This document shows, in pieces, positions 1 to 62,200 of a DNA stretch of 64,000 nt. Each line of letters begins with the position of its first letter. Positions within the stretch are counted from its first letter, which is position 1. Made by a program: the position numbers and the translations under genes. A model generated the notes under the pieces. It did no database searches. It was not told where the DNA came from and saw only the letters and a program-made list of their open reading frames with translations. Source of the stretch: Chiloscyllium plagiosum (taxonomy: Eukaryota). Location of the stretch: positions 3,929,462-3,993,461 of the forward strand of contig NC_057755.1 of assembly GCF_004010195.1 (NCBI RefSeq). Reading direction: 5' to 3'.

Positions 1-649
1 TCACCTGATGATCTTCGTGTCTTTGCATGCTAAAGTCTGCTGTTCGACAAGCAAACAAATGATTTTCACAGTGTACAGGTAGATATGACAATAATAATAA
101 AACAAATCAAATCATATCAAAGGTGAAAGGAGAAAGGACAATGACAGAGATGATGGAAGCGGTCGAACATCAAAGCCAGTGGAATAACTTGTGAGGACAA
201 GACGTGCTGTGTTTTTGATAGAGCTGAAAAGTTTGAAATGCCAGAGGATGGCATGTTGAATGTTGAGGGTGTTGCTGAAATATGAAAAGTGCATCACTGG
301 GAAAGTTGCTAAGGTGGCACTGATGCTTTCACAAAGAAAAGTATCCTGAGAAGAAACAACAGTTCGGGCAATTACAGTCAGAGTCATTTTGGAGTCAGTG
401 GCTCTGGAGAAATGTTGGTTAAAAGACGATGGACTATATAGGAGTTGGAGAAGTCATAAAGACAGAGAGGTTTATAACGCAGAAAAAGATATGCACTTTG
501 GCCTGTAGAGTCTATGCTGGTCAAATTCAATTGCCTAACAATTCTCATGTAGTTTTCCAGCATTAGGTCCATAACCCTGCCATTACAACTACACACATAA
601 ATAGTTCTGTTATCAGGGTATCCGCCTCTACTGCCCTTACAAGGAGCCA

Positions 650-1065
650 TCTAGGGAGCCAAACTCTGGCTACCTGCAGCCTGGAGGAAGAATGCCTCAT
701 CTTCCGCCTTGGGACCACCCCCCCCCACCCCCACAAACACAAGAGATCAATGTGGATTTCCCCTCTTCCCACCTTATCCCAGATCCAACCTTCCAACTCG
801 GTGTCGCCCTCTTGAACTGTCCTACTTAACCATCCTCCTGCCTATCTATCCACTCCACCCTCCCCTTCGACCTATCACCATCACTCCCACTTTCATCTAA
901 CTATTGCATTCCCAGCTACATTCCCCCACAACAGCCCCCCTCCCATTTATGATTCAGCCCCCTTGGGCCGCTCCCTCATTCCTGATGGAGCCTACTAAAA
1001 CGTCGACTTCCCTACTCGGCGGATGCTGTCTGAGCGGCTGTGCTTTTCCAGCACCCCACTATTCT
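650..1065 (+). mobile_element. Penelope-like element 3' fragment
   Basis: LEEECLIFRLGT-type GIY-YIG tail, pyrimidine-rich UTR and terminal repeat (ggatgctg...tgtgcttttccagcacc). Confidence 0.7.
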
Positions 1066-1149
1066 ACCCGTCCAGGCAGTAATTTCCAGATTGCCACCAC
1101 AGTCTCAGTGGCAAACGAAACATCCTGCCTCTTTGCATCCATGCCCCGG

Positions 1150-2050
1150 TCATTTACAAGCCCAAAAAGGGGAAAACGTATGTATTTCAATGCTGTCTAT
1201 GCTCCTTATGATTCTATATATTGAAACCACGTCCGCTCAAGAATCTTCCCTGCCCCAACGAAAACAAGACTAATCCATCCAATCTCGCTTCGTACCTAAA
1301 GCTTTCCAACATTGGAATCATCATGGAAATCTCTGCATCATTTCCAGGGCAATGAAAATACACCTACCTTGTGGATTCCAGAACTGCACACAATACGCTC
1401 GCTGTGGCGTGGCCAATATTTTATACAGTTGCAGCATATTTTCCTTGCACTTCATCTCTATTAAAAGAACAAAAAATGTTCCTTATTCCTTTTGAACCAT
1501 ATTATCGACCTGTCAAGCTGCCATATGGTGTTCATGTGCAGCAAGGTCCCTTTGATTTTCAGTGTGTCTCAGGCTCTTACCATTCGTCATGTTTTTCCCT
1601 TGCCTTGTATTTCCTTCCCATGTGCATTAGCTCACAAATACTCATACTGAATTCCATTTGCCACTGATCAGCCCATCTCACCAGCCGATTTACACCATCC
1701 CATAATCGAAGGATATCCTCTTCACTCTTCAGCACTTCATCAATTTTTTCCTGTCAGTGAACTTATCCTGTATATTCCCCAGTATGTTGGTTTCCCGGTA
1801 GATGTGAATACCACCGTTCATCTTTAGTGGAACATGTGGGCCCTGTATTCTTTCTATTTCCTTCTTGAATGCATCCCACTCCTCGAACATGGATTCCCCT
1901 AAAAGTGTCTGCTCTCTGTCCAATTGCACACAACCTTATTAACATTTGGGATTGCTCCAGTTTAGAACTTTGATTTCTTGTCCTCGTCTTTTTCCAAATT
2001 AATCTTGAGTTATTGTCATTGTCTGCAAAATTATTCCCCACTGAATTGCC
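1150..2050 (-). mobile_element. Old CR1 LINE fragment
   Basis: Degenerate reverse-complement CR1 ORF2 sequence (e.g. ccagaactgcacacaatac, ttccatttgccactgatcagccc). Confidence 0.55.
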
Positions 2051-2069
2051 AGGTAGGAGAAAGAGGAAT

Positions 2070-2890
2070 TCAGATGTTGGAGATCAGAGTAGAGAGTGTG
2101 GTGATGGGAAAGCACAGCAGGTCAGGCAGGATTCTCGTCAGATCAACATCCCTCACTCCCAGGACCTTCTACTGCCACCACAGGAAGTGCAAAACCTGCT
2201 CCCACAGGCCGCCCCCTCACCTCAATCCAAAGCCCCAAAGGGTCCTTCCACATCCAACAGACGTTTACCTGTACCTCCACAAATGTCATCGACTGCATCC
2301 ATAGCACCCGATGTGGTCTCCTCTATATCAGGAGACTGGATGCCAACTTGCGAAGCTTTTCAGAAAACATCTCTGGTACACTCACACCAACCAGGTCAAC
2401 TGCTCCATGGCTGAACACTTCAACTCCCCCTCCCACTCCACCAAGAAAATGCAGGTCCTTGGCATTCTCCATCGCTAAACCCTAACCGTGCACTGCCTAG
2501 AGGATGAAAGCCTCATCTTCGGCATTGGGACCCTGAATCCACACGGGATTAATGTGGATTTCACCAATTTCCTCATTCCCCCTCCCTCCACCTTCTCCCA
2601 TTCCCAAGCCTCCAACTGAGCACCGCCCCCTTGACCTATTCATCTTCCTTCCCATCGATCCGCTTCACCCTCTTCTCTGACCTATCACCCACTCCTCACC
2701 TTCATATACCGAGAACATTCCCAACTCCCTTGCCCATAGCCCCACGCACACCCGTTTTTGTCTAACCCCACGCCCCATCCCCACGGCCTACAAACTTCAT
2801 TCCTGAAGAAGGGCATATGCCTGAAACGTTGATTCTCCTAGTCCTCAGATGCTGCCTGGCCTTCTGTGCTTTTCCAGCAGCACATTCTTC
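2070..2890 (+). mobile_element. Penelope-like element (GIY-YIG end) with inverted 5' terminal-repeat fragment
   Basis: CxxRKCKTC motif, degenerate GIY-YIG, 3' terminal repeat at 2795-2890, inverted copy of that repeat at 2070-2130. Confidence 0.8.
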
Positions 2891-3587
2891 CCATTGAAAT
2901 GTCAGCCACTTACCCACCTTCATTCCATAAAAACCGGCCAGGAATGCCATCAAAGTGGGTGAAAGTACTAAAAACCAGTCTGGGATTGGCCAGACGAAGC
3001 TATACAGTATGTTGTGGTAAAGAGAGAAGGAAAACAACCTCCAGTTTATCCAGCAGACAGCATCAGAGGGATAATGTGTTAAAACAGCTGTAAAATGCTC
3101 CAGACCCAGGGGTGAAACGGGAAGATCCGGGCCAAGTGTTGGATGATAGAGTGGGGGAGGAATTCCAATGAGAATCGTGAACACGTGGAGTCTAATGAAT
3201 AATATCCAAAGTGTGGAAAGCTGTGGGTAATCATGAAGGGACATTTGACAGAGAATGATTTGTTGCTGACAGTAAGAATAGGTCATATTCACTGTGGGTT
3301 TAAATAATGCTCAGGTTCATTCCATGTTTCAGAGATGAGTATTTCAGAGATAGCCACTGTCAGGTAGGAAAATAAGCTTCAATGTGCAGCTCTGGACTCA
3401 TTCAGAAACAAACAACATGCATTGTGGGACAGGAGAAGCGGAATGAAGGAGATCATGAAAAATCCAATGTTTAAGGAGTCAGAGAGAACTGATTATCAAT
3501 TCTTAACTGATTGGATCCTGCATTATGAAATTCAAAACTGTACACTTGACCGTTGCATGTGTCTCCATTCAAATGAAGACACTCCAA

Positions 3588-21597: not shown

Positions 21598-22450
21598 GAA
21601 AGGGGGAGTGGGAGAGAGAGAAAGAGGGCGGTGGTGAGAGATAGACTGGTAGAGAGAGTTATGGAGGGAGGGAGACGGAGAGAGAAGGAAAGAGGGCGAG
21701 GGGGGAGTGAGAAAGANNNNNNNNNNNNNNNNNNNNNNNNNNNNNNNNNNNNNNNNNNNNNNNNNNNNNNNNNNNNNNNNNNNNNNNNNNNNNNNNNNNN
21801 NNNNNNNNNNNNNNNNNNNNNNNNNNNNNNNNNNNNNNNNNNNNNNNNNNNNNNNNNNNNNNNNNNNNNNNNNNNNNNNNNNNNNNNNNNNNNNNNNNNN
21901 NNNNNNNNNNNNNNNNNNNNNNNNNNNNNNNNNNNNNNNNNNNNNNNNNNNNNNNNNNNNNNNNNNNNNNNNNNNNNNNNNNNNNNNNNNNNNNNNNNNN
22001 NNNNNNNNNNNNNNNNNNNNNNNNNNNNNNNNNNNNNNNNNNNNNNNNNNNNNNNNNNNNNNNNNNNNNNNNNNNNNNNNNNNNNNNNNNNNNNNNNNNN
22101 NNNNNNNNNNNNNNNNNNNNNNNNNNNNNNNNNNNNNNNNNNNNNNNNNNNNNNNNNNNNNNNNNNNNNNNNNNNNNNNNNNNNNNNNNNNNNNNNNNNN
22201 NNNNNNNNNNNNNNNNNNNNNNNNNNNNNNNNNNNNNNNNNNNNNNNNNNNNNNNNNNNNNNNNNNNNNNNNNNNNNNNNNNNNNNNNNNNNNNNNNNNN
22301 NNNNNNNNNNNNNNAAGAAAAGAGATAGGGGGTGTGAGAGAGACTGTGGGAGGAAGAGAGAGTGAGAGAGAGGGGTTGAGAGAGGAAAGAGGAGAGCGAG
22401 AATGTGAGAGAGAGGGCGGGACCGAGACACGGGAGAGAGAGAGAGAGGAG
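21598..22450. repeat. GA-rich low-complexity tract flanking an assembly gap
   Basis: Purine-rich (GA)n-like sequence on both sides of the N run. Confidence 0.85.
21717..22314. other. Assembly gap (598 N)
   Basis: Run of N. Confidence 1.
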
Positions 22451-22619: not shown

Positions 22620-23230
22620 AATGTGATACAATTTGAACATTCCTTAAACCTTTCACTTATTCCAGCATTTAACACTTGTGACAATACATCAGCAATTACA
22701 TTACGTGTTCCAGCGATGTTCATAATCTTTATATTAAGTGGTTGCAACCAAAGGCTCCATCGGAATAGCGCTGCATTCTTTATTTGAAATATTTCAATTA
22801 AAGCCAGTGCATTATGTCTGTGCAACTTAGCATTTCACTGTTCTTTGTCGGATACAGATTTCAAAGTGTTGAAGAGCAAACAGCAATCCCAAAGCCCCCT
22901 TTATCTATCAGAGAGTATTTTCCAATGACTGTCAATGTTTCTAAGAGAAGTCCCTATGATTTCTCTGTACCTGAGTCACCAAAATGTAACAGGATATTAC
23001 ACAACCCCAGGGCACTAGCATCAACTGTCATTTTGAAAAGTCTGGAAAAATCATGAGTGGCCCACATTGATTCATTTTTTTTTCAATTTGTCTTCATCCT
23101 TGCAAAGGCAGCCTTGTGTTCTGCGAACCTAACAACTTTTTACTTGATTTCTTCACAGAATTGTTAAAGGCACAGCCAGCCAGGTATAATAATGCACAAA
23201 TTTTCAGTAACTGCACACATTGGTATAAAT
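22620..23230 (-). mobile_element. Very old Gypsy RNase H remnant
   Basis: FKMTVDAS, ALQHFE, HNAL, LFRWSLWLQP, AGTRNVIADVLS. Confidence 0.75.
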
Positions 23231-23299
23231 CTACTAATTTGTTATTCAGTTTCAGCAAGTACGAATTGTATTCGAGCCTTCAGTTTTGCTGTCCTCAGC

Positions 23300-23950
23300 A
23301 ATATGTACGTGTATGTGTGTTTGTCTATGTATGTGTGTCTGCGAATATCTCTGTGTGTGTATGTGTGTGTGTATCTCTGTCTGTGTGGATATGTATGTGT
23401 GTCTGTGCATGTCTGCGTGTGTATGTGTGTCTGTATGTGTGGGTCTGTGTGTATGTGTATTTGCGTCTGTGAATGTCTGTGTGCGTGTGTCTATGTCTGT
23501 GTGTATGGGTGTCTGTAAGTGTGCATGCACGTGTGTGTTTGTGTGTGTTCTGCGTGTCTGTGCGTGTATATATGTGTGTGTGTGTGTCTGCCTGTGTGTC
23601 TTTGAGCATTTCTGTCTCTATAGTTGTATGTATAACTATCTCAGTGTGTCTATTGATATATATTTGTATGTGTTAGTGTATATTAGTGTCTGTATTACAG
23701 TGGTTTTTTGTCTATGTGTGTCTCTGTGTCTATTTCCATGTGCTCTTGTCTGTCGTGTGTTAATGTAGCACTCTGTATCTGCATTTGTGTGTACATCTGT
23801 GTCTGTATCACTGTGTATATTTCTGTTGTTCTCGGGGTGAACTCATTGAAATGGGATCAAACTTCCCCTCTCTGTCCCTCGTGTTCAAGGTGATGTAATG
23901 TTGATGCTCATGTTGACGTATGTCTCTATGCGTGTGTGTGTGTGTGTCCA
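23300..23950. repeat. Degenerate (TG)n microsatellite
   Basis: About 650 bp of imperfect TG/TA/TC dinucleotides. Confidence 0.95.
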
Positions 23951-25609: not shown

Positions 25610-26190
25610 GGACAATTCCTTTGGATTGTGCTGCGATGGAAATTCCTCAGGTTCCCAGCTCAATTCTCCCTGCACTGGGATAAGGACACTCTGTCAGGAG
25701 TGTAAGGGAATTTCCCCCACTTGCCTGGATGTGGGCATCTCCATCAATCACTCAAGAAGTTAAACACCATTCAGGACAAAGCAACCCACTTCATTGATCC
25801 CATATCCACAAACATCCAACCCCTCCACCTCTGACACTCAGTAGCAGCAGAGCATATCATCTACAAGATGCACTGCAGAAATTCACCAAAGATCCTCAGA
25901 CACTACCTTCCAATCACATGACCACTTCGATCTGGAAGGACAAGGGCAGCCGATATCTGGAAACACCACCCCCTGCAAGGTCCACTTGAAGTAACTTATC
26001 GTCCTGAATTGGAAATATATCGCTGTTCCTTCACTGTCACTGGGTCAAAATCCTGGAATTCCCTTCCTCAGGGCATTGTGGACTGCAGTGGATTAAGAAG
26101 GCAGCTCACCACCACCTTCTCAAGGGGCAACTAGGGACGGGTAATAGATGCTAACCCAGCCAACAATGCTCACATGCCATAATTGAATAA
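25610..26190 (+). mobile_element. CR1/L2-superfamily LINE 3' end
   Basis: LKKLNTIQDKA; tail gcagctcaccaccaccttctcaaggggcaactagggacggg. Confidence 0.75.
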
Positions 26191-26389
26191 TTTGAAAGTA
26201 TCGTTTCATGGTCTGGAAACAATAGGCCCCTCCTGTTTTGTTAACTGTGGAATTTTATTTATTTATAACACAAGAAATTCATGGAAACATATATTTTGCT
26301 GCATTACTGATCTTCGCTCTGAACCCAGACAATCTTGGTGCATAAATAAATGTGTTTGTGCAACAACTTAGGGTCTGCAGCATGTATGA

Positions 26390-44945: not shown

Positions 44946-45803
44946 TCATGTAACCAGGTATTTTACTGCGTTACTGATCTTCGCTGTGTACTGGGACAAT
45001 GTTGCCACATAAATAAATGTGTTCCGCAGCATGAAGCCAACTTGCCTGAAGTGATGCAAGAAAGGAGAGAAATCATCAGGATCTATTGCTTGAATGACAT
45101 AATATAAGAAATTTACAGCATAGATTAACCACAGGAGGATGAAACTCCCAGAAATGGTGAAGAGTAAAATCACAGCCTTCCTTCTGCTCTCCATTTCTGG
45201 ATCTCTGTGATTCTCACCTTTGCTCTTACCCTTCAGCCTCTTGCGGACTCGACTGATCACTAAAATGTGTCTGACTGTCAGAACATTGAGCAACAGAATT
45301 AAAGTGAATGGCAGTAAAGGTGTCAAAATTGTATCAAGTCAATCCAATACCAACCACCAAGTCTCAGTATAGTAGCTTGATTTTATTACAGTACAATGAC
45401 ACATTGTTGATTATTGTACGAGGTTCATATTGAAAATAGAAGGGGATGTTTTTCAAACAGAACAGGTTGCAGGTTGTTGCTAGAACCACAGTCGCAGTTT
45501 TCTCAGTGCAAACTTTTGCTTTCAGATTCAGACAACAAATGGTCACAAATCAGTCAAAGGACAAAGTGATGGTGAAGCAGACAGAGCAGTCAGTGGCTGC
45601 ACAATATAAGACCTCAATAACACTGCACGCAGGTGTGATGTCCAGGAAGCACAATGTGTAATAATAATAGGGAAACCTTCTCAGTGTAAAATCAGTGATA
45701 ATCAACATCAGACCAGCAGCTGCCATAACCACCAGGTAACGAGTAGTGCAAGAAGACACACCACGTTTTCTATTTGAAAGGATTCCAATCGCTAGAAAAT
45801 TAA
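44946..45803 (-). pseudogene. GPR139-like GPCR pseudogene, exon 2
   Basis: Three ORF pieces align with the 58184-59061 protein. Lesions: acceptor AG->AA (45805-45804), TGA in DRF (45552-45550), 2-nt deletion near 45383, TGA at 45341-45339, 18-nt deletion of LSCCTN in TM7. Confidence 0.92.
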
Positions 45804-47241
45804 TTGTGGGAGACAAATTGGAAAATACATGGTGAATTACAAATCATAAATTCCTCTCGCTGTTCCAGAGAGCAACATTAAGATTTTACCATCAAAAATC
45901 AGCACACTGTGTTAGTGGAAGTGATTGAGGTTAAATGAGTTTGAATCTTAAGACTTTGACATCCAGCTCAAACTTTCCTCCAGCCCAATTATTCCCGAGA
46001 GTACGGAGATTGGACAGGGACTGCGCTCACCATCCCTTCTATGGTAGCAGAAGGAAGTCTGTGATCATTTTTTGGTTGCAAGGTAATCACTTGAGTGACT
46101 GCAATAAATTATTAAAGTTCATGGCTCCAACTCTGGCAGACATAGAACATCATTCGGAACCTCACTCCCAACTCAGTCATAGGACTGGTACATTTGATAA
46201 ACCAAACTCGCCCTTTTTCTTGGATTAGGTCATCCCCTGCTCTAAGCATTGGACCAAATCCTGATCGGAGGCATAGCAGGGCCAGAAAACAAGTCATTAG
46301 AACCTGAGTAAGATTTCAAACAAGATACTCCATGTGTCTTACACAAGTACAACATAACAGGACATTCAGAGACTCAATAGTTACAGCGTGTGAATGTTAG
46401 GCCTTCTGTGATATGCGCACTGTGAAGCTGGACATGTGAACATGACAAACGTCGTGACTTGCAGGGATCGGTGGGACAAGCCGTCAAGATTTGAAATAAT
46501 TGACCAGAGACGGTGAGAACGATATAATTGAGAAAGAGATGGTGGTTAGATGAATCTTTGCAAATCAAAACAGGGCTTATATTCTTCAAATCCTTTGCTT
46601 ATCAAAATAATGTCTCATTTAAATTGACCAAATGATCCAATAACCACTGCCATTTGTACAAGAGAGTTCTAAAACTCCGTTAACCTTTGTGTTTACAAAT
46701 GCTTCTAAGCATCTCTGCTGAACGTTCTGGCACTAATTCTCAGGCTCTGCTCCCTCATTCCAGAATCTTCAACAATGGAAATTGTTTCTTTTTTCCTGTT
46801 TATATGTTGTAGTACTTTGCTCAGATCATCCCTTTACCTTCAACGTTCTCATAAAAACAGGCCTCATTTGTATACCAAAAACAACAATAGCTCAGCAGGA
46901 CTGCCAACGTTTGTGGGAGAGAGAGCAGTGTTAACATGTCAGGCCCAGTGATCCTTCTTCAGAACTAACTTGCCTGATCTCTCTTCATACCCTCACATTG
47001 TATGAAACTGGAACGGATGGCAGAACACTGAGATCAGAGAATACTGCAGGAGCAGTGATGTTGGGATGCTCTAACAGTGGAGATTTGTACCGAGAATGCT
47101 GCTCAGTGAATCGCTATCACTGTTCTCGTGTCTGGATAAGGCTGACCAGTCAGTGAGCTGTAGTCATTATTGTTCAAATGATAAAATCAGCGAACAGATC
47201 AGCAGCAGATTAAAACAAGATCACTTCTCATAAAGACATAC

Positions 47242-47308
47242 GAGAGATGCTAATAAAAGCAAGGATGCTGTAGAATACTCTCTTCACGTGTTGAATTGTT
47301 TGATGCAT
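47242..47308 (-). pseudogene. GPR139-like GPCR pseudogene, exon 1 (MHQTIQHVKRVFYSILAFISIS)
   Basis: 67-nt exon homologous to 54564-54630, followed by donor gtatgt (47241-47236). Same phase 1. Confidence 0.85.
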
Positions 47309-48389
47309 TTTTCCCTGCGAGGTGACCTGCCCATTCAGGCAGCTGACAAGTTCCTTTTTTGAAACGCTGAGCTGATGAATTCTCAGAGACGCTGACTTAT
47401 ACTGCGTGGAATTTCCTTGGGGAGATCGAAGATACAGCTTCATTGTTGTTTTTCAAATTTCTGCCAATGAACAAAGTAAGTACAACATTACATTTAATCC
47501 CGATTATGAAGGAATGTTGCTACTTATACATTGTAACAAAATAATAAAAACAGAATTTGGAATCGGACAGCAATAATATTGTCCAATCAGACACCAGGAC
47601 TCCCATCCCGAGATCACAAAATATTTCAACCGATGCCTCATCGAGTAAGTTTACTCTGAGTGTGAATATATATCTCAGAGTTGTCCTTCTGCACTGTAGG
47701 GTAGGAACTGCCTCTTTAAAAAATAACATTACACTCCCTGATTGAAATGCGATTCTTCCCACACAGTGAATGTGTGCATGCATTCCCCATTCCCTATTTC
47801 CCTATTTCACATGAAGGACCGAGTGAGGAGAACATACTGCTTTACTGAGGGAAGGGGACTCAGTGAATAAGATGGGCTTCCAACAATGGAGACATCACTG
47901 ACGTCCCTCTGACTGACACTGTCCAACCCGATACACTGACCTCTCCGCCCTTTTTGTCGCTCTCTATCCCCACGTTTTCTTGTCTTTCCCTGTTTATAAT
48001 GTCAATGCCAGTGCTGTGCTATCATAAAATGGCTGCTGTGTACAAATCTAAAATGGTTGATGGACGGACACGTTCGGAATCCATTCTCCCAGATTTGCAC
48101 CTCACAGTTTGTACATGACCACATCTTAGCCTCCTGCAGATGGGATACAGTGAGATGGGGAGCAATGTTAGACTTGGAGGAACAATAGAGACTCAATGGT
48201 CCAATGTTAATCTGAGGGCAGGAACAAATAAGTTATGGATCTGGAACTCTGTCAGCACAGGTGAGGGAGGATTTGTGAAAAGCTTTTTTCAAATTTGGTC
48301 ACATTGTCCTATGATTTGTGTACAAAGATCAGGAAAAATATGTATGATATTTAATATGTACTGGAATAAAGGAGTACTTGACCCTAATG

Positions 48390-48484: not shown

Positions 48485-48715
48485 ACTAGAGTCAAAGGGT
48501 GTGCTGCTGGAAACCACAGCTGGTCAGGCAGCCTTCGAGGAGGAGGAGAGTTAACATTTCGAGCATAAGCTCTTCATCAACACATTCCTGACTAAGAGCT
48601 TATGCTCGAAACGTCGACTCTCCTGCTCCTCGGATGCTGCCTGACCGGCTGTGCTTTTCCAGCACCATACTCTTTGATTCTGATCTCGAGCATCTGCAGT
48701 CATCACTTTCTCCAC
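48485..48715. mobile_element. Inverted pair of Penelope terminal repeats
   Basis: 48488-48578 is the approximate reverse complement of 48590-48680. Confidence 0.85.
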
Positions 48716-48719
48716 ACGC

Positions 48720-50660
48720 TGTGACTATGCTGTCTCTTTAAAAAGTTATTTCCTTCTGGGTCTTTGGGAAGAGAGGTTGTTAAGGCAGAGGTGCTGAAGA
48801 GTCGAAAGTGCTAAAAGATAAAACAGGTGAACAATGGAACCGGAGTAGCTAATTCTCTAATTTCAGGGTTTCTAGTTTTAAATATCTGCAGCAATTAGAG
48901 GATGATTTGAGTACTGGACGGGTTGCACACCTCAGTAAATGATTCCTGACTGACTCTGTCTGAAATCTCTCTCTGGATATTGTTCCCTCCTGTCTGTAAA
49001 TATCTGCGTTTGAATTTACCTTTTGTCAAGCAATGTATTTATGGGATATTACTGGATTGGAATAGTTAATTAGTTAAGTATCAGATTGGTTAAACTTTTC
49101 AATAGTTAAGTTGTTCTAAGTTCTGCTTTCTTTTGTTCATGTTTCAACTGTAGGTTTTAAATAAATTGTGTTTTGCTTAAAGCCGGGTGCTTTGACCAGC
49201 TGCATCATACCTGGAACACCCACTTCACATCTGCCTTTAAAATAAGAAAAATGTTAGGGTTTAGGCTACCTCATTCAATTATTTGGAGGGGGACTGGCTT
49301 GGTCCATAACAGATTGGAGGCTCTTCTGAGATCATTGGATGTTTCCATTTGGTTTTTCGGCTTGTTAGACTCAAAGGCAGCGAATGGTAGGTGTTAGTGT
49401 CTTTTATTCTCTGAAACAACCTACAAGTTGGCATCCTATGTCCTCGATGTAGAGGAGATCACATCGGGGGTGTAATAGACACAGTAGATTAAGTGTTGGA
49501 TGTACAGTAGATGATCAGTGTGGAAGTGCATCTCCGGCAAATTTATGGATCATTTAAGTGAACTTCTCTGGGACACGCACATCAACCAACCCCATTGCCC
49601 CAAGACTGTCCCTCCCATTCTACCAAGTACATGCAGGTCCTGGGCCTCGTACATTGCCAACGCCTGGAGGAAGAAAACTTCATCTTCCACTTTGGGAACC
49701 AGCAACCAGAGGTGTTTATGTGGATTGCACCATTTTTCTAATTTCCCTTCCCCTAATCTATCCCAGTACCAAGAATCCAATTTAGCACCATCCCCCTTGA
49801 CCGATCTTACCTGTGTCCACTTTCCTTCTCAACTATCCATTCCACCCTCCCCTCCAACCTATCAGTTCCATTCCCATCTTCATCTATATATCATATTCTC
49901 AGCTACCTTCCCACCAGCACTATCTTCCTCCGATTTATCTCCCAGCCCCCCAGGCCTATTGGCCTCATTCCTAATGAAGGGGTTTTTGCATGAAACATTG
50001 ATCATCCTCCCCCTTGGATGCTGCCTGGCCAGCTGTGATTTTCCAGCACCACACTGTCTGCTCTGAACTCCAACATCTGCAATCCCCACTCTCTCCCAGA
50101 AGCTGACAGACAATGTTTCAGGACTCTCAGGAGGGACCCTGGTCAAACATGCATTGAACTTGAAAGGCTCAAACAAAGTCATTTTGATAGACGGATGTGG
50201 ATACTGAAGATAGATCTAACATATAATACTCTTAGAGAGTTGATTATTTGGAGGAATTCAGAAATTCCCTCCGAGGTAGTGAGAGCTCATTTGGAAGAGC
50301 AGAGAATTCAAACGGCAAGATTAGCAGCTGAAATGGCTCCTAATTATGAGTTGGTTATCAAATCAAGGTGTGACTTCCAACATAATTTCAATTCATGAGA
50401 GATAGAAATTATGGAAAAGAAATCTTCAGGTGGGAAGGGAAAAGTCAATCTCAGTGACGATAATAAAGACATCTTAACACAGGGCAAAAAGGCAACCCAT
50501 GAAGGGGGAAGAGAAGTTAAAAAGCTCCAGTGTATTCACTGCAATAATGTAGCCACATGAAGTCACAGTGTTGGTGGAAAGACTTTATTCAAATGGTAAT
50601 CGAAGGTACGGTGGAGGCTAAAAACCTGCACCAGAAAATTCAACCTAGCTGGAGGGTGGG
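48720..50660 (+). mobile_element. Second Gmr1-type Gypsy remnant (LTR 48720-49311, PBS, gag piece), interrupted by Penelope at about 49415-50095
   Basis: TG...CA LTR, PBS-like tggaggctcttctgagat, and gag EVVRAHLEEQR and CIHCNN.. matching 33900-34210. Confidence 0.8.
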
Positions 50661-54040: not shown

Positions 54041-54471
54041 TAGTTGTTCATGTGAATCCAGATCCTGGACAACTGGCGACAAGGAATACATGCAGCAATG
54101 CATACATTCAGTGTGCGAGAAGAATCACAACTCAATCAGTAAGTTTAAAAATAGGAAGGACAGCTCTGAGACATATTTTCACATTTGGAATAAACTGTCC
54201 CAATGCAGCATCGGGTCCGATGCAGCATCAGTTGAAATATTTTTAGTTCTCAGGATGGGGGTCATGGTGTTTGAGTGGACGGTGTTATTGTTGGCAGATT
54301 CCAGATTCTGTTTTTTTCTTATTTCCTTCTGATGTATGAGCAGCAAAACTCCTCCATAATTGGGAAAAAACTCGTTATTGTAATTAGTTTGTTCATTGAC
54401 TCAAGTTTGAAAAGTAGCAACAAAGCTGAGTAATGTTGTCACCTCGATCTCCCCAAGGAGCTTCCACACAG

Positions 54472-54477
54472 TATAAA
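54472..54477 (+). promoter_or_regulatory. Candidate TATA box of the GPCR gene
   Basis: ccacacagTATAAAg about 90 nt upstream of the ATG. Same context (TATAAG) kept in the intronic duplicate (55510) and in the pseudogene (47402-47397, - strand). Confidence 0.5.
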
Positions 54478-54563
54478 GAAGTGTCTCTGGGAATGCATCA
54501 GCTCAGAGTTTAAACAAGGAGCTTGTCAGCTGCCTGAAGAGACAGGTCACCTCGCCCAGAAAA

Positions 54564-54630
54564 ATGCACCGACCAATTCAACAAGTGGAGAAAGTGTTCT
54601 ACACCATCCTTGCTTTTATTGGTATTCCTG
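54564..54630 (+). CDS. GPR139/GPR142-like class A GPCR, coding exon 1 (MHRPIQQVEKVFYTILAFIGIP + 1 nt)
   Basis: ATG at 54564, 67-nt open frame encoding the N-terminus and first half of TM1, ending at donor CCTG|gtaagg. Phase 1 joins in frame to exon 2 (G+GT = Gly, giving IGIPGNLLAI). Too short for the ORF track. Confidence 0.85.
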
Positions 54631-55320
54631 GTAAGGCTTTAATACAATTGATTCTATTGTAATCTGCTGCTGATCTGGTGTCTGGTTTTATCCTTCGAAC
54701 AATAATGTCTACAGCTCACTAACTGGTCAGCCTTATCCAGGCACGGGGACAGTGTCACTGAGCAGCATTCTCGGTACAATTCTCCACTGACAGAGACTCC
54801 CAACCTCACTGCTGCTGCAACATTCTCTGATCTCAGTATTCTGTCATTTGTTCGATTTCATACGGTTTGAATGTATAAAGAGAGACCATGCAAGTTAGGT
54901 CTGATGAAGGACTCAAACCTCTAATTCTGCTTTGTCTCCATAGATTATACCAAACCTCTCAGTTTCTCCAACAATTTCTGTTCTGTTACACAAATGAGGT
55001 CTGTTTTCTAGAGGATCTGGAAGATGAATGGGTGATCTGATTTGATGCTTTCAAGATATTGACTGGAAAAGACAGGCTGGACAAGGATGAACTTTTTCCA
55101 CTGGTTGGGGGATTCTAGAATGTGGGGGCATAGTCAGAGAATGAGGGACAGAATGAAGCACTGCGACACACAAAGGGTGGGAGAAGTTTCTAACACTCTT
55201 CATCATAAGGCAGTGGATGCTGGATCAGTTGTTGATTTTCAATCTGACATACATAAAATTTTGCTTCGCATTTGTATTAAGGGGTATTGGACAAAAGCAG
55301 ATGTATAGACTTAGGTCAGA

Positions 55321-55745
55321 GTGTTATTGCCAGCAGATTCCAGATTCTATTTTTGTTACTTCTTTATGATGTACAGGCCAGTAACAGTCCTTCATTGTTG
55401 GAATTAACACGTTATTGTAATTAGTTTGTTCATTGACTGAAGTTTGAAAAAACAACAACAAAGCTGAGCCATGCTGTGACCTCGATCACCCAAAGGAGCT
55501 TCCACACAGTATAAGGCAGTGTCCCTGGGAATGCATCAGCTCAGAATTTCAAACAAGAGCTTGTCAGCTGCTAAAGGGACAGATCACCTTGCATGGAAGA
55601 GGTGATCAATTCAACATGTGTAGAAGGTGTTCTACACCATCCTTGCTTTGATTGGTATGCCTTGTATGGCTTTGTGATAAATGAAATGATTTTTTTAAAT
55701 CTGCAGCTGCTTTGCTCTCTGGTTTTAACTTTTGAAGAATAATGA
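55321..55745 (+). pseudogene. Duplicated promoter and exon 1 of the GPCR gene, degenerate, inside its intron
   Basis: Similar to about 54282-54710. Reads IQHV*KVFYTILALIGMP with TAG at 55621-55623, the ATG at the homologous position is lost, and the donor is gtatgg. Confidence 0.82.
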
Positions 55746-58183
55746 TCTCAGTGAATGATAGAAAACGATTAATGTCGTGAGTGACCTACTCCTGTTCCAA
55801 TGTTCCATTGTAAAATTCAGTATACAGACTCTGCGTTGAGAATTTCTGAGCCTTGGAATGTACTTGAGCGGGAATCTCTGTCAGTACAGAATTATACTTC
55901 GTATGGGGTCTTTTAATATGATGAAAAAGCTGACTTTATATTTCACATTTTGCTTTGGAGCTGTCTATTTCTCCATTTCATGAAACTGCTTCAATTTTTA
56001 TGCGATTTTGATGAGTATGTAAAAGTAAACTTTTTTGTGAGTCTGAAGTGTAAGGAGTGATATATGCACAGATTTCCTGGTTCTGAAAGAACTTGCCCCG
56101 CAGAAAGAGCAGTGAGTGTATGCCAATCTGTGTACAGTGATATCGTATTCTGCAAGCCTCCATATATTGACTAAAGCTTACACTGAGTGAAAACACCTTG
56201 AGCAGATATTTTATTGTAAATATAACCTATTTGACTAATGCAGTGGAGTTTCTGTGAAACATAAACGTTGAACAACTATTGGGATTTAGTTCATGAGCTA
56301 TTAAGTTCTAACTGATCAGTGATTGATGGATCAAATTTTATCTGCAACTTGGAGTCGTTTTACAGGTAAACTGCCAATCTTGATCCTTGCTTAGTGTGAG
56401 CTTTGTGACTCTGATGATAAATGGCCACAACTGAGGAACAATTGTTGAAAAACAAGAAACGTGTCGAGATCAGACAGTAGTTTGTGACCAGTAACGCGTG
56501 TAGACTGTTCATGATGAACTGGACAGTGGACATCTCTTAGTTCTGGGGCCAAAGTTACTGCTGTAATTGACGCGTTGGATGAAGGATGGCTGTTCCTGAT
56601 GGTGGGGGAGTCCAGAACCAAGAGTCATCATTGAATCAAAAGGTGAAAAGCATTGAGGATTGAGATGAGGAGAAATTTCTTCACCCAGAGAGTGGTGAGC
56701 CTGTGGAACTCTCCCTCAGGTAATGGTTGAGGCCAAACATTATGCGTTTTCAAGATGAAGGGGATAAACCTCTTGTAGTTAACGGGATGAAGGAATATTG
56801 GGGTGAGGGTGGGATTAGGGGATTGAGCTTGATGATCAGCCATGATCATGTTGAATACTGGGGCAGGTGTGAGGGGCCGAATGGCCTACTCCTGTTCCTA
56901 TCTTCGATGTTTCCACATATCTCGAAAATGAGTGGATAACTTTATGAATGATGGGTAGCAGCTGAAACGTTCTCAGTTTAAATTCTAGAATCATAAATTA
57001 TAGAAGTGGCCTTTCATCCATTGAGTTCTGTACCACCAAAGATAAAGTAAATCCAGACTAGTCAACCCTTACCGTACCAGTCCCATAGTATTCAATGTTA
57101 TGACACTGCACATACTTTATCAAATAACACTTCTCTAACTCACGGAACTACCTCTGTCTTACCAATTTGATTATGTCCTCCTGTAATCTAACATCCTCCT
57201 CCTCAATGTCACCAAGCAGCAAAACCTTGTGTCATCTGCAAACATGCTAACATCAGCACCACCCCTCCTCATGACCCCAACTTCACCCTCCAACCCCAAC
57301 GCACACTCTCTCAACTCCATTATTTATACCTACCAGGAACATTAAGGAATCCAGCACTGATCCCTATGATTCACCTCTGGGCACTGCTTATTCACTAAGT
57401 GCAGCAAACTCATTTCAGATGTCAGTTTAAGATCAACGTATTTCTATTTTTAACTTCCATCACCCTGGACATGATTCTCGATGTTTTGTTTGGATGAGTG
57501 GTATCTTATTAACCTGCGTTGCTGTTTTTCTTGCTTGTAAACCTAGTCCCTTGATACCCTCAGAAGTCTGTTACTGAGATATTTTTGAGAACCTGATCCG
57601 AATGAGCAAACAGGCAGAGCCGATAACTATTTATTATTTATCATTTAAAATTCAGCTCATTCACTTTATACATGGTTCAATCACCACACACTCTCTGCTT
57701 CCTTGTGTCAACTTCACCGTCATATCAATTTGAGTTGCAGAGACATAAACTTACAAATCTCCAGCACAGATACAGGACATTCATCCATTATATGCAAACC
57801 ATTCAAAAACAAGCAGCTAACTATTCTAATCACATTTTCCAACATTTGTAGGAATATAGGAACAGTAGTAGACCAGTCAAGCCTTCAAACCAATTAACCA
57901 TCCAATTTATCACACTATTTAAAATAGTTCCCTTACAGGGGAAGCCCCTGGTGGTGGGGAGGGCATGAGCCCATTTCCTCACCTGACTCCAAAACTCTCT
58001 GGTGTTATTGGGTTGGAGGCAAAATGGGGCAGGAGCAACTGTCTTAAACCCAACCACTTGCAAACATCCACTCCCCTAGTCCCAGATTTTATGATGGTAA
58101 AATCGAATTATTCCTCTGTGGAATAGGCAGAAGGAGTTTCTGATCAGTAATTCATGGCGTCTTTTTCCATTTGCCTTCCACAG

Positions 58184-59061
58184 GTAATTTACTGGCGATT
58201 GTTATTCTTTCTCGGGGAAAGTGTGGACTTTTGCCTTGCACTTCTTATTACCTCATGGTTATGGCAACTGCTGATCTGATGGTCATTATTATTGAGGTTA
58301 CTGTGAGGAAATTTCGCACTTATTATTACCCACGGTGTTTCCTGGACATCACTCCCGTGTGTAGTGTTACTGGGGTGCTCTTACGGACAGCCAGGGACTG
58401 CTCTGTCTGGTTCACCATCACTTTCTCCTTTGACAGATTTGTGACCATTTGTTGTCAGAAACTGAAAACAAAATATTGCACTGAGAAAACCGCGACTGTG
58501 GTTCTAGCAACAACCTTTACCCTGTTCTGCTTGAAAAACATCCCCTTCTATTTTCAATATGAGCCTCAGTGGATAATCAACAATGTGCCATTCTACTGTG
58601 TTACAAAGTCAAGCTACTATACTGAGACTTCGTGGGTGGTATTGGATTGGCTTGATACGGTTTTGACCCCTTTACTTCCATTCACTTTGATTCTATTCGT
58701 CAATGCTCTGACAGTCAGACACATTTTAGTTACCAGTCAAGTCCGGAAGAAGCTGAAGGGTGAGAGCAAAATAGAGAATCACAGAGACCCAGAGATGGAG
58801 AGCAGAAGGAAGGCTGTGATTCTGATGTTCACCATCTCTGGGAGCTTCATCCTCCTGTGGTTAATCAATGTTGCAAGTTTCTTATATTATGCCATTCCAG
58901 GAAGCAATCCTGACGATTCCCAGCAGTTTCTATATCATTTCAAAAAGGTAGGTTATATTCTGCGAAACCTAAGTTGTTGCACAAACACATTTGTTTATGC
59001 AGCAACATTGTCTTCGTTCAGAGCAAAGTTTAAGAATGCAGTAAAATCTCTGCTTACATAA
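58184..59061 (+). CDS. GPR139/GPR142-like class A (rhodopsin-family) GPCR, coding exon 2; spliced protein 314 aa
   Basis: Acceptor ctttttccatttgccttccacag|GT. Uninterrupted frame with GN (TM1), MATADL (TM2), Cys and FDRF (TM3), ECL2 Cys, TPLLP (TM5), SFILLW (TM6), NTFVY (TM7) and helix-8-like FRAKF. 67+878 = 945 nt. Confidence 0.9.
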
Positions 59062-59144
59062 ATTTCTCAAATTAAGAATACACAAATTTCCAGAGTGAAA
59101 TCCATACACGAGCCATACTCTTTCACAACCATGGTTTTTTTAAA

Positions 59145-60020
59145 AAAATTCACTCGTGGACCGTGGGGTCGCTGACTGAGTGAGGGTTTTTCCCCTTCCC
59201 TAGTTTCCCCTAGAGAAGCTGATGGTGACCTGCCTTCCAGAACCCCTGTAGTCTATGTTGATCCACAGTGAGGGCGTTCCAAGACTCTCACTCAGCAACA
59301 CTAAAAGAATGGTAATATTATTTCTAAGTTAGGATGGTGAGTAGCTTGGAGGGGAACTTGCAGGGGGTGGTGTTCGCATGTAACTGCTGACCTTGTCCGT
59401 CCTGCGGTTGGAAGGGGCTGGCAAAGTATCTTTGGTGAATTTCGGCAGTACATCTTGTGGATAGTACAATATCATGCTCCTGAGCGTCGGTGGTGGTTTG
59501 GGTGGATGGAGTCATAGAGTCATAGAGATGTACATCATGGAAACAGACCCTTCGGGTACAACCCATCCATTCCAATCAGATACCCCAAACCAGTCCAGTC
59601 CCTGCCAGCACTCGGCCCATATCCCTCCAAACACTTCCTATTCATAGAGCCATCCAAATGCCTCTTAAATGTTGCAATTGTACCAGCCTCCACCACTTCC
59701 ACTGGCAGCTCATTCCATACACGTACTACCCTCTGTCTGAAAAAGTTGGCATGTAGGTCTCTTTTATACCTTTCCCCTCTCAACCTAAACATATACCCTC
59801 TTGTTTGGACTCCCCGACCCCAGGGAAAAGACTTTGCCGATTTACACTATCCATGCCCCTCATAATTTATAGAAGATCCCCCCTCAGCCTCCGACGCTCC
59901 AGGGAAAGCAGCCCCAGCCTGTTCAGCCTCTCCCTACGTTTATGAATTGTTTGCCAATCTAGTGGGATGCTTTGCCCTGGATGGCCTTGAGCTTCTGGAG
60001 TGCTTCTTAGAGCTTATTGG
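59145..60020 (-). mobile_element. L2-like LINE 3' end with nested CR1 3' end (59510-59935)
   Basis: FFRQRVVRVWNELP; gagtcatagagtcatagag tail on the - strand. Confidence 0.75.
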
Positions 60021-61499: not shown

Positions 61500-62200
61500 A
61501 AGGCTTATCTGCTAAATGTCGACTCTCCTGCTCCTCAGGTGTTGCCTGACCTGCTTAGCTTTTTTCAGTGCCACACGTTTTGACTCTGATTCTCCAGCAT
61601 CTGGAATCCTCAATCGTAGCCCTTGCTCCAGCCCTGCTCCGGCACAACATTTTTTTATTGGATATATGGATGATATCATCAGTGCGACTTCCCTCTCAGG
61701 TCCAGAATTGGCAAAGGTCATCTATTTTGCTTCCAGTTTCTACCCTACCTTCACTTTCTCCTGGCTTATCTCTGACTCCTTCATCCCCATCTTCAACGTC
61801 ACTGTTTCAATTCCTGGAGGTGGACTGGACACTAATGTCCAGTATAAACCGACTGACCTGCGCAGTCACCCAGACGATACACACTCAGACCCTGTTTCCT
61901 GTAAAGACCCTATTCCATTCTCCCAGTTCATCCGTCTCCATTGCTGTTTCGACGAGGCCAACTTCGACAAGGGAGCCTCTACAATGTCCACCTTCTTTCT
62001 CAACCAAGGATTCCCCAGCACCGTTGTTGACAGGGTCCTCAACTGGGGTCGAAACATCTCCCGCCCTTCCGCCCTCACCCCCTCTCTTCCTGCCCACAGC
62101 AGTGACAGGATTCCCCTTGTCCTTACGTACCATCTCACCAGCATTGCCATCCAGAAGATCATCAGCCCCCATTTCCGCCACCTCCAACCAGACACACACA
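61500..62200 (+). mobile_element. Penelope RT fragment
   Basis: GYMDDI, YKPTD, IPFSQFIRL, RIPLVLTYH, preceded by a terminal repeat. Confidence 0.88.

Follow-up and report, generated by a model that had tools for sequence, protein, structure and literature searches.

The stretch of Chiloscyllium plagiosum DNA analysed here (contig NC_057755.1, positions 3,929,462 to 3,993,461; its whole length of 64,000 nucleotides (nt) is called the window) carries gene A, which is, with its predicted splicing, an intact two-exon class A G protein-coupled receptor (GPCR) gene. Gene A is an ordinary member of a large family of elasmobranch receptors that is apparently undescribed and patterned like a sensory repertoire. 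Members of this family combine a conserved signalling face with a diversified ligand pocket. We propose that gene A is one unit of a birth-and-death receptor repertoire, probably chemosensory, a proposal that we hold with about as much confidence as doubt. That the repertoire would serve diversified ligands appears likely from the protein comparisons, and its putative site in chemosensory cells, whether of the olfactory epithelium, of the taste papillae or of the solitary type, is an even call.

Gene A starts with an ATG at position 54564 and its first exon ends at the donor CTG/GTAAGG, while the intron closes with a pyrimidine tract and CAG. The phase-1 GT-AG join of 54630 to 58184 gave 945 nt encoding 314 amino acids (aa) followed by a stop, and the alternative joins at 58185 or 58186 gave frames full of stops. 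This join and the resulting short N-terminus had been put forward in a preliminary description of the locus, and both are borne out by the reading frames and by the N-termini of homologues. The same description had correctly placed the start of the unspliced 296-aa open reading frame at a TTG (58171) inside the acceptor tract. A single-exon gene starting at this TTG was rejected because the triplet lies within the acceptor tract and because homologues have the spliced N-terminus. Of the 22 residues encoded by exon 1, 20 are identical to those with which P0012, a zebra-shark protein, begins. The N-terminus has the same length as that of gene A in 45 of the best 120 homologues (of 2,185 matches, see below), and 24 of the 120 alignments begin at residue 24, as expected of mis-predicted models without exon 1. 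Since the N-terminus is kept in homologues and the inverted paralogue B of the window has a matching 67-nt exon 1 with a GT donor, exon 1 is more than a chance reading. A 1534-nt contig of a second species covers 56816-58353 at ~94% identity. Single-cell RNA reads aligned to 54100-59400 (~2% and ~6% of two runs) included no junction read, a result that speaks neither for nor against expression. One run gave 75 partial reads (0 at 99% identity or more, 7 at 95-99% and 68 at 90-95%), which fell mostly on repeats and in a few cases on exon 2 or the promoter; the second run gave none and is no test.

Exon 2 matched the Pfam domain 7tm_1 with 76.5 bits against a cut-off of 30.5. The residues N24, D53, R107, P188 and Y294 (N1.50, D2.50, R3.50, P5.50 and Y7.53) and the cysteine pair C82-C161, which links position 3.25 to extracellular loop (ECL) 2, are present and conserved, as are present the motifs DRF (106-108), LLWLI (246-250) and NTFVY (290-294) to which the preliminary description had drawn attention. 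The AlphaFold model of exon 2, of low confidence (mean pLDDT 61), shows a helical bundle with an ECL2 hairpin; it resembles class A structures with TM-scores of ~0.6-0.7, the matches being class A peptide receptors and GPR139. We also observed that exon 2 starts with GTAATT (CAG/GTAATT, 58181-58189), so that splicing recreates a donor-like site, as in recursive splice sites. This donor-like junction is due to a rare G at position 1.49 (G in 2 of 88 homologues, V in 81 of 88).

Of 2,795 candidates in the homologue search, 2,185 proteins (90% clusters) matched at E<=1e-3. Taxa are known for the best 120 of these 2,185 matches, and the species were tallied by hand. All 120 are elasmobranch (sharks and one skate), with 61-77% identity to gene A: Heterodontus 63, Pristiophorus 12, Heptranchias 8, Mustelus 8, Stegostoma 7, Chiloscyllium 7, Scyliorhinus 5, Cetorhinus 5, Rhincodon 4 and Rhinoraja 1. 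Family members in the catshark include XP_038654761.1 and XP_038636253-6.1. The 63 proteins of Heterodontus, the horn shark, correspond to 61 distinct sequences at 90% over the core, and each of the 63 spans 265 or more of the 270 core positions. When 50%-identity representatives were searched with the family profile, 131 matched at E<=1e-30; 16 of the 17 family-level representatives looked up are from sharks, skates or rays, and no chimaera appeared among the family matches listed. In the trees, deep subfamilies are common to sharks and batoids, and gene A stands in a carpet-shark subclade together with whale, zebra and bamboo shark genes (support 100/100). An alignment of 48 sequences across sharks and skate contains 41 invariant columns. 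The homologue search, the profile search and the trees all support the lineage-specific expansion that had been suggested. The preliminary description was thus right about gene A and about the expansion; however, it underestimated the scale of the latter, each genome having dozens to hundreds of these genes, and did not mention three relics in the window. Read depth in two DNA runs, from this or a related species, shows that the exons and promoter have many close copies, the depth itself not being a copy number: summed contig depth was ~4-45 in unique intron bins, and at 90% identity or more it was 360-3,400 in the promoter/exon 1 bins and 280-39,000 in the exon 2 bins. Most members are named GPR139 automatically (under the label 'probable GPR139'), and P0159, P0176, P0068 and P0149 are called 'neuropeptides capa receptor-like', 'vasopressin V2 receptor-like' or 'uncharacterized'. 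Given these mixed names, a count by name underestimates the family.

The unusual motifs of gene A recur throughout the best 120 matches. Among the residues listed, none of the 120 has a proline at 6.50, 118 have T at 7.50 and 117 have F at 3.51. These motifs and the short N-terminus are therefore not peculiar to gene A. In human GPR139, NFFLY is found where NPxxY is expected.

Variation was compared between 30 pocket positions, chosen from class A ligand-contact positions and listed before the columns were viewed, and the rest of the transmembrane helices (TM), whose limits were set by eye. Across the 120 matches, mean entropy reached 1.69 bits at the 30 pocket sites versus 0.63 at the 141 other TM sites (p=2e-8), and 0.93 at the other positions of the extracellular half (p=2e-4). 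Loop entropy was 0.47-0.65 bits in intracellular loops (ICL) 1-3, 1.39 in ECL2 and 2.1 in ECL3. Pocket identity was 51% among 74 shark paralogues (those of the 120 matches with 300-335 aa, 46 being dropped) versus 97% among 20 amphibian orthologues of a related gene, while identity at non-pocket TM sites was 80% and 81%, respectively, indicating equal background divergence. The horn shark alone (38 sequences) gave 53% for the pocket and 83% for the non-pocket TM sites. Similarly, gene A matches its six nearest named paralogues at 13-20 of the 30 pocket sites and at 105-115 of the 141 others. A subset of nine pocket sites gave 26% versus 99%; these sites were picked after seeing the entropies and are not relied on. 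The entropies and the amphibian control show a repertoire-like variation of the pocket, in line with the receptor repertoire considered possible in the preliminary description. The pocket has a conserved acidic floor (D3.37 in 105, D5.39 in 99, D5.42 in 96 and E/D2.57 in 108 of the 120 matches), and its most variable sites are 3.29, 3.32, 6.51, 7.35 and 7.39. Basic residues in the pocket of gene A are R64, R67, R90, R93, K276, K277 and R283.

Outside elasmobranchs, the closest relative is a gene of salamanders, frogs, a caecilian and sturgeon, with one copy in each species listed (21 of the 25 matches to a newt query), a single-copy count in which the 90% clusters may conceal very recent duplicates. 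This gene groups with the shark family with a support of 100/100 in a smaller LG+G4 tree and 99 in a larger quick tree, both of which were built without true GPR139 and GPR142. The amphibian/sturgeon gene (P0230, P0300-P0319) is an orphan mislabelled GPR139; it carries N at 2.50 and, in amphibians, S at 1.50, and it is present in Xenopus tropicalis. This pocket-invariant Xenopus orthologue offers a route to the ancestral ligand. Beyond it come coelacanth, teleost and frog receptors, and then amphioxus. The family profile scored amphibian and coelacanth receptors at 177-179 bits, amphioxus at 101-121 and human GPR139 at 62; neither the search with an amphioxus protein (11 matches, all amphioxus) nor that with the newt protein (25 matches) returned GPR139 or GPR142. 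All these relatives have a short N-terminus, and alternative models of coelacanth (P0268) and newt (P0279) break at the TM1 intron position of gene A, which is an indirect reading of the intron. Both the short N-terminus and the intron would therefore be ancestral. Human GPR139 presumably has its intron at the same place in TM1. The nearest non-shark relatives all fall within a wider GPR139-related group (N5.58, a residue other than proline at 7.50, short N-terminus, TM1 intron), and gene A, as judged from these features, belongs to this group, which comprises GPR139, GPR142, GPR210 and the amphioxus GPR139-like receptors. The coelacanth, teleost and frog relatives are probably the 'GPR210' orphans that Rinne et al. 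(2019, PMC6504862) place beside GPR139/142, their accessions being unmatched to the Ensembl ids of that paper.

A GPR139-related ancestral gene, which in amphibians and sturgeon has apparently stayed single-copy with an invariant pocket, appears to have been amplified in sharks and rays. In this amplification a small cassette (promoter, exon 1, intron and exon 2) was seemingly duplicated both in tandem and in inverted orientation, and copies often died. The copies kept the G-protein-facing loops together with N1.50, D2.50, DRF, P5.50, N5.58, W6.48, N7.49, Y7.53 and C82-C161, and diversified the orthosteric pocket, with a variable rim above the conserved acidic floor (E/D2.57, D3.37, D5.39 and D5.42). 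Each copy would then recognize a different ligand through one shared signalling pathway, which we assume to be Gq/Gi by analogy with GPR139. The family as a whole would sample a wide chemical space, made of charged small molecules or short peptides. A variable pocket over conserved signalling elements implies that many ligands are read.

Cartilaginous fishes have been described as showing a 'relative paucity' of GPCRs (PMC8455134), with 20-62 olfactory receptor genes per species despite many olfactory neurons (PMC10869828) and 65 chemosensory genes in the catshark (PMC6368271). Such small olfactory repertoires leave room for a receptor family that has been missed. Indeed, the horn shark contributes at least 61 distinct genes among the best 120 matches alone and thus matches or exceeds the known olfactory receptor total (20-62 per species, PMC10869828), hidden under the 'probable GPR139' label. 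We found no description of the elasmobranch family in the full-text literature, a search whose coverage leaves out most subscription journals. It is not mentioned in PMC11979771, PMC10115646, PMC8455134 or PMC12294341, as judged from term searches of their main texts, and one supplement of PMC10529500 contained no match. Orthogroup OG0000365 (157 proteins, 12 taxa, 7tm_1, no human gene listed; supplementary file 5 of PMC8455134) is possibly this family. We tentatively suggest that an undescribed chemosensory family of sharks and rays, derived from a GPR139-related receptor of the peptide type and outnumbering all known olfactory receptors combined, might explain how few recognised receptors accompany large olfactory organs. 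In any of these roles (smell, taste, skin sensing or immunity), the family would be a large receptor repertoire that arose independently in vertebrates.

Several observations weigh against the proposed chemosensory repertoire. The top 50 'brain and olfactory epithelium' genes of a catshark organ transcriptome include no GPCR (PMC11979771, one of the main texts that do not mention the family). Such a GPCR-free list is, however, also expected from dilute expression with one receptor per cell. Monophyly of the elasmobranch set alone is weakly supported (85/75 in the LG+G4 tree). The ratio of nonsynonymous to synonymous differences (pN/pS) between gene A and paralogue B is 0.66 in the pocket, thus below 1 (28 codons, in a comparison with a pseudogene), and 0.39 at other TM sites, and positive selection is not demonstrated. 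Furthermore, divergence of the pocket between paralogues is expected of any neofunctionalising GPCR family, including an immune one. The main rival explanation, which we regard as unlikely, is of this kind: the receptors would be innate-immune or somatosensory sentinels in granulocytes, mast-like cells or skin sensory neurons, sensing microbial or host cationic peptides in the manner of MRGPRs or FPRs. Clusters, pseudogenes and a variable pocket fit it equally well, cationic ligands would suit the conserved acidic floor, both the ECL2 hairpin and the best matches in fold point to peptide receptors, and cartilaginous fishes reportedly lack the MAS1/MRGPR orthogroup (PMC8455134). However, the pocket of gene A has many basic residues too, and the sequence has no particular affinity to MRGPRs or FPRs, GPR139 being the top match in the PDB.

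That the expansion is largely neutral, the cassette being copied in repeat-rich DNA, the pocket drifting without ligand constraint and gene A being simply not yet dead, seems improbable to us. Three of the four copies in the window are dead, the surroundings are rich in long interspersed elements (LINEs), the non-coding flanks of A and B are as similar (77-81%) as their coding region, and no RNA read was 99% identical or more to gene A, a weak test. However, over 281 codons the dN/dS ratio of A against B is 0.41 even though B is a pseudogene, which indicates purifying selection on the pair for much of its history. In addition, variation clusters in the pocket and spares the intracellular loops, the 41 columns noted above are invariant across sharks and skate, and the deep subfamilies common to sharks and batoids show that many lineages have long been retained. 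A reproductive or neuroendocrine system of co-expanded endogenous peptides or pheromones, following the kinship of the GPR139 group with FMRFamide, sex-peptide and MIP receptors, is quite improbable. The fold is of the peptide-receptor type, ESM Atlas neighbours include FMRFamide-receptor-like clusters, and an orthology of GPR139 with the FMRFamide and AST-B receptors has been described (PMC12208981); yet no matching ligand family was identified, and a conserved pocket would be predicted, as seen in the amphibian orthologue (97%) and not in sharks (51%). The preliminary description had favoured a divergent paralogue with an unknown ligand and noted that GPR139/GPR142 are activated by aromatic amino acids; a last reading, taken from this lead, is a receptor for aromatic L-amino acids like those two. 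Human GPR139 is by far the best sequence match in the PDB, and gene A has W6.48, N5.58, Y1.39 and a non-proline 7.50 in common with it; the direct match to gene A nevertheless reaches only 24 bits (62 bits with the family profile). In GPR139, F109, H187, W241 and N271 are needed for activation by Trp or Phe, and R244 is the modelled partner of the carboxylate (PMC5430874). The corresponding residues of gene A (F109, H187, W241, R244 and N271 in GPR139) are R90, D180, W248, N251 and Y280, so that one of five is kept, and the family rarely has F at 3.33 (9 of 120) or R at 6.51 (4 of 120). An aromatic amino acid as ligand is thus highly improbable. GPR139 stands as the nearest solved structure; a close paralogue with an aromatic-amino-acid ligand is not supported. 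Orthology to GPR139 or GPR142 was also rejected, given the pocket, the scores of GPR139 below those of amphibian, coelacanth and amphioxus receptors, I250 at position 6.50 and the presence of C82-C161.

The window contains four copies of the cassette (Table 1), of which gene A is intact and three are relics, namely a pseudogene (paralogue B), a 3' fragment (fragment C) and a dead duplicate of exon 1. The three copies of exon 1 share a TATA-like TATAA, located in gene A at 54472, 92 nt 5' of the ATG, and the upstream block of gene A is 74-80% identical to 55321-55744 and to the region upstream of paralogue B. The intronic duplicate kept the GT donor, lost its start ATG through a 4-nt deletion and has an in-frame TAG; three out-of-frame ATGs precede its one in-frame ATG at 55657, from which the product would lack half of TM1. 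It was rejected as the true first exon because of the in-frame stop and the missing start codon at the homologous position. Paralogue B is arranged head-to-head with gene A, the ATGs lying ~7.3 kb apart. The stops in its exon 2 fall at the codons matching R107 and W178, and the exon has deletions of 2 nt near C161 and of 18 nt in TM7. The remainder of the gene to which fragment C belonged is gone, and retroelement-like sequence adjoins it.

Table 1. Gene A and related copies of its cassette in the window (positions from the first letter of the window)
Feature	Position	Strand	Description
Gene A, coding exon 1	54564..54630	+	67 nt = 22 codons + 1 nt; short N-terminus and first half of TM1
Gene A, single intron	54631..58183	+	3553 nt, phase-1 GT-AG, inside TM1 just before N1.50
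Gene A, coding exon 2	58184..59061	+	Rest of TM1 to helix 8; 0 stops, 0 frameshifts
Putative promoter and 5' untranslated region block	54282..54563	+	Common to the three exon-1 copies; promoter role inferred
Dead tandem duplicate of promoter and exon 1, in the intron of gene A	55321..55744	+	80% identity over 434 nt
Paralogue B, promoter block, 67-nt exon 1 (47308-47242) and intron start	46952..47689	-	77% identity over 767 nt
Paralogue B, exon 2, pseudogene	44946..45803	-	Acceptor AA for AG, two stops, frameshift
Fragment C (third paralogue: TM7 and helix 8, with the stop and 3' flank)	26081..26386	-	tblastn E 1.8e-8; blastn 72% over 308 nt

A, B and C stop at the same codon (59059-59061, 44946 and ~26280, respectively), 8 residues before the closest 322-aa homologues of whale and zebra shark, so that the shorter C-terminal tail is older than their duplications. 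The promoter and the first 280 nt of the intron are 77-81% identical between A and B (54155-54911 versus 47689-46952), an identity above that at synonymous sites (pS 0.31), which may reflect shared regulatory constraint or gene conversion. Between the two genes, a near-palindromic 195-nt element (48488-48681) with 69-nt arms that are 86% complementary has related copies at ~49970-50100 and 61500-61610; we take it to resemble the inverted ends of a Penelope-like retroelement. Decayed fragments presumed to be CR1-like LINEs, Penelope-like and long-terminal-repeat-like elements (labels from the text of the open reading frames) occur throughout the window. There is an assembly gap of 598 nt at 21717-22314 and a long CA/GT microsatellite at 23071-23768. 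No further host gene could be recognised in the window.

Comparison with known receptors places these observations in context. Human GPR139 and GPR142 (PDB 7VUG; activated by L-Trp and L-Phe) share with gene A, at ~21% identity, the residues named above and a TM7 motif without P7.50. However, gene A has neither P6.50, R6.51, F3.33, H5.42 nor N7.39, and has the C3.25-ECL2 cysteine pair that is absent from GPR139. The GPR142 orthogroup (70 proteins in 35 taxa) is not expanded, unlike the shark family. GPR210A/B-type orphans of coelacanth, gar and teleosts (PMC6504862, the main text of which does not contain the word 'shark') and the amphibian/sturgeon gene resemble gene A in the short N-terminus, the C3.25-ECL2 cysteines and the apparent TM1 intron. 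The amphibian/sturgeon gene also has the ICL3 motif 'DPE..RR' in common with the shark family. These genes appear as a single cluster in each species, their pocket being almost invariant (97%), whereas the shark genes number dozens to hundreds and are hypervariable. MRGPR/MAS1 receptors are likewise a lineage-specific expansion of orphan class A receptors with a short N-terminus and acidic pocket residues; they belong to an unrelated branch, and the analogy to the shark family is functional only. Pfam matches down to E 0.1 were limited to 7tm_1 and a sub-threshold domain of unknown function, and gave no membership of the olfactory receptor, TAAR, V1R, V2R, T1R or T2R families. In general, chemosensory repertoires have short N-termini, compact clustered genes, pseudogenes and losses of canonical class A motifs. 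Gene A differs from the known chemosensory families in its origin from a peptide-receptor-like GPR139 branch and in its coding intron. Nevertheless, olfactory receptors, TAARs, V1R/ORA, T2Rs and the rodent vomeronasal FPRs occur, as does the shark family, in pseudogene-rich clusters with a variable pocket over a conserved signalling face, and the elasmobranch genes display this same pattern of clustered birth-and-death expansion, hypervariable pocket and conserved intracellular face.

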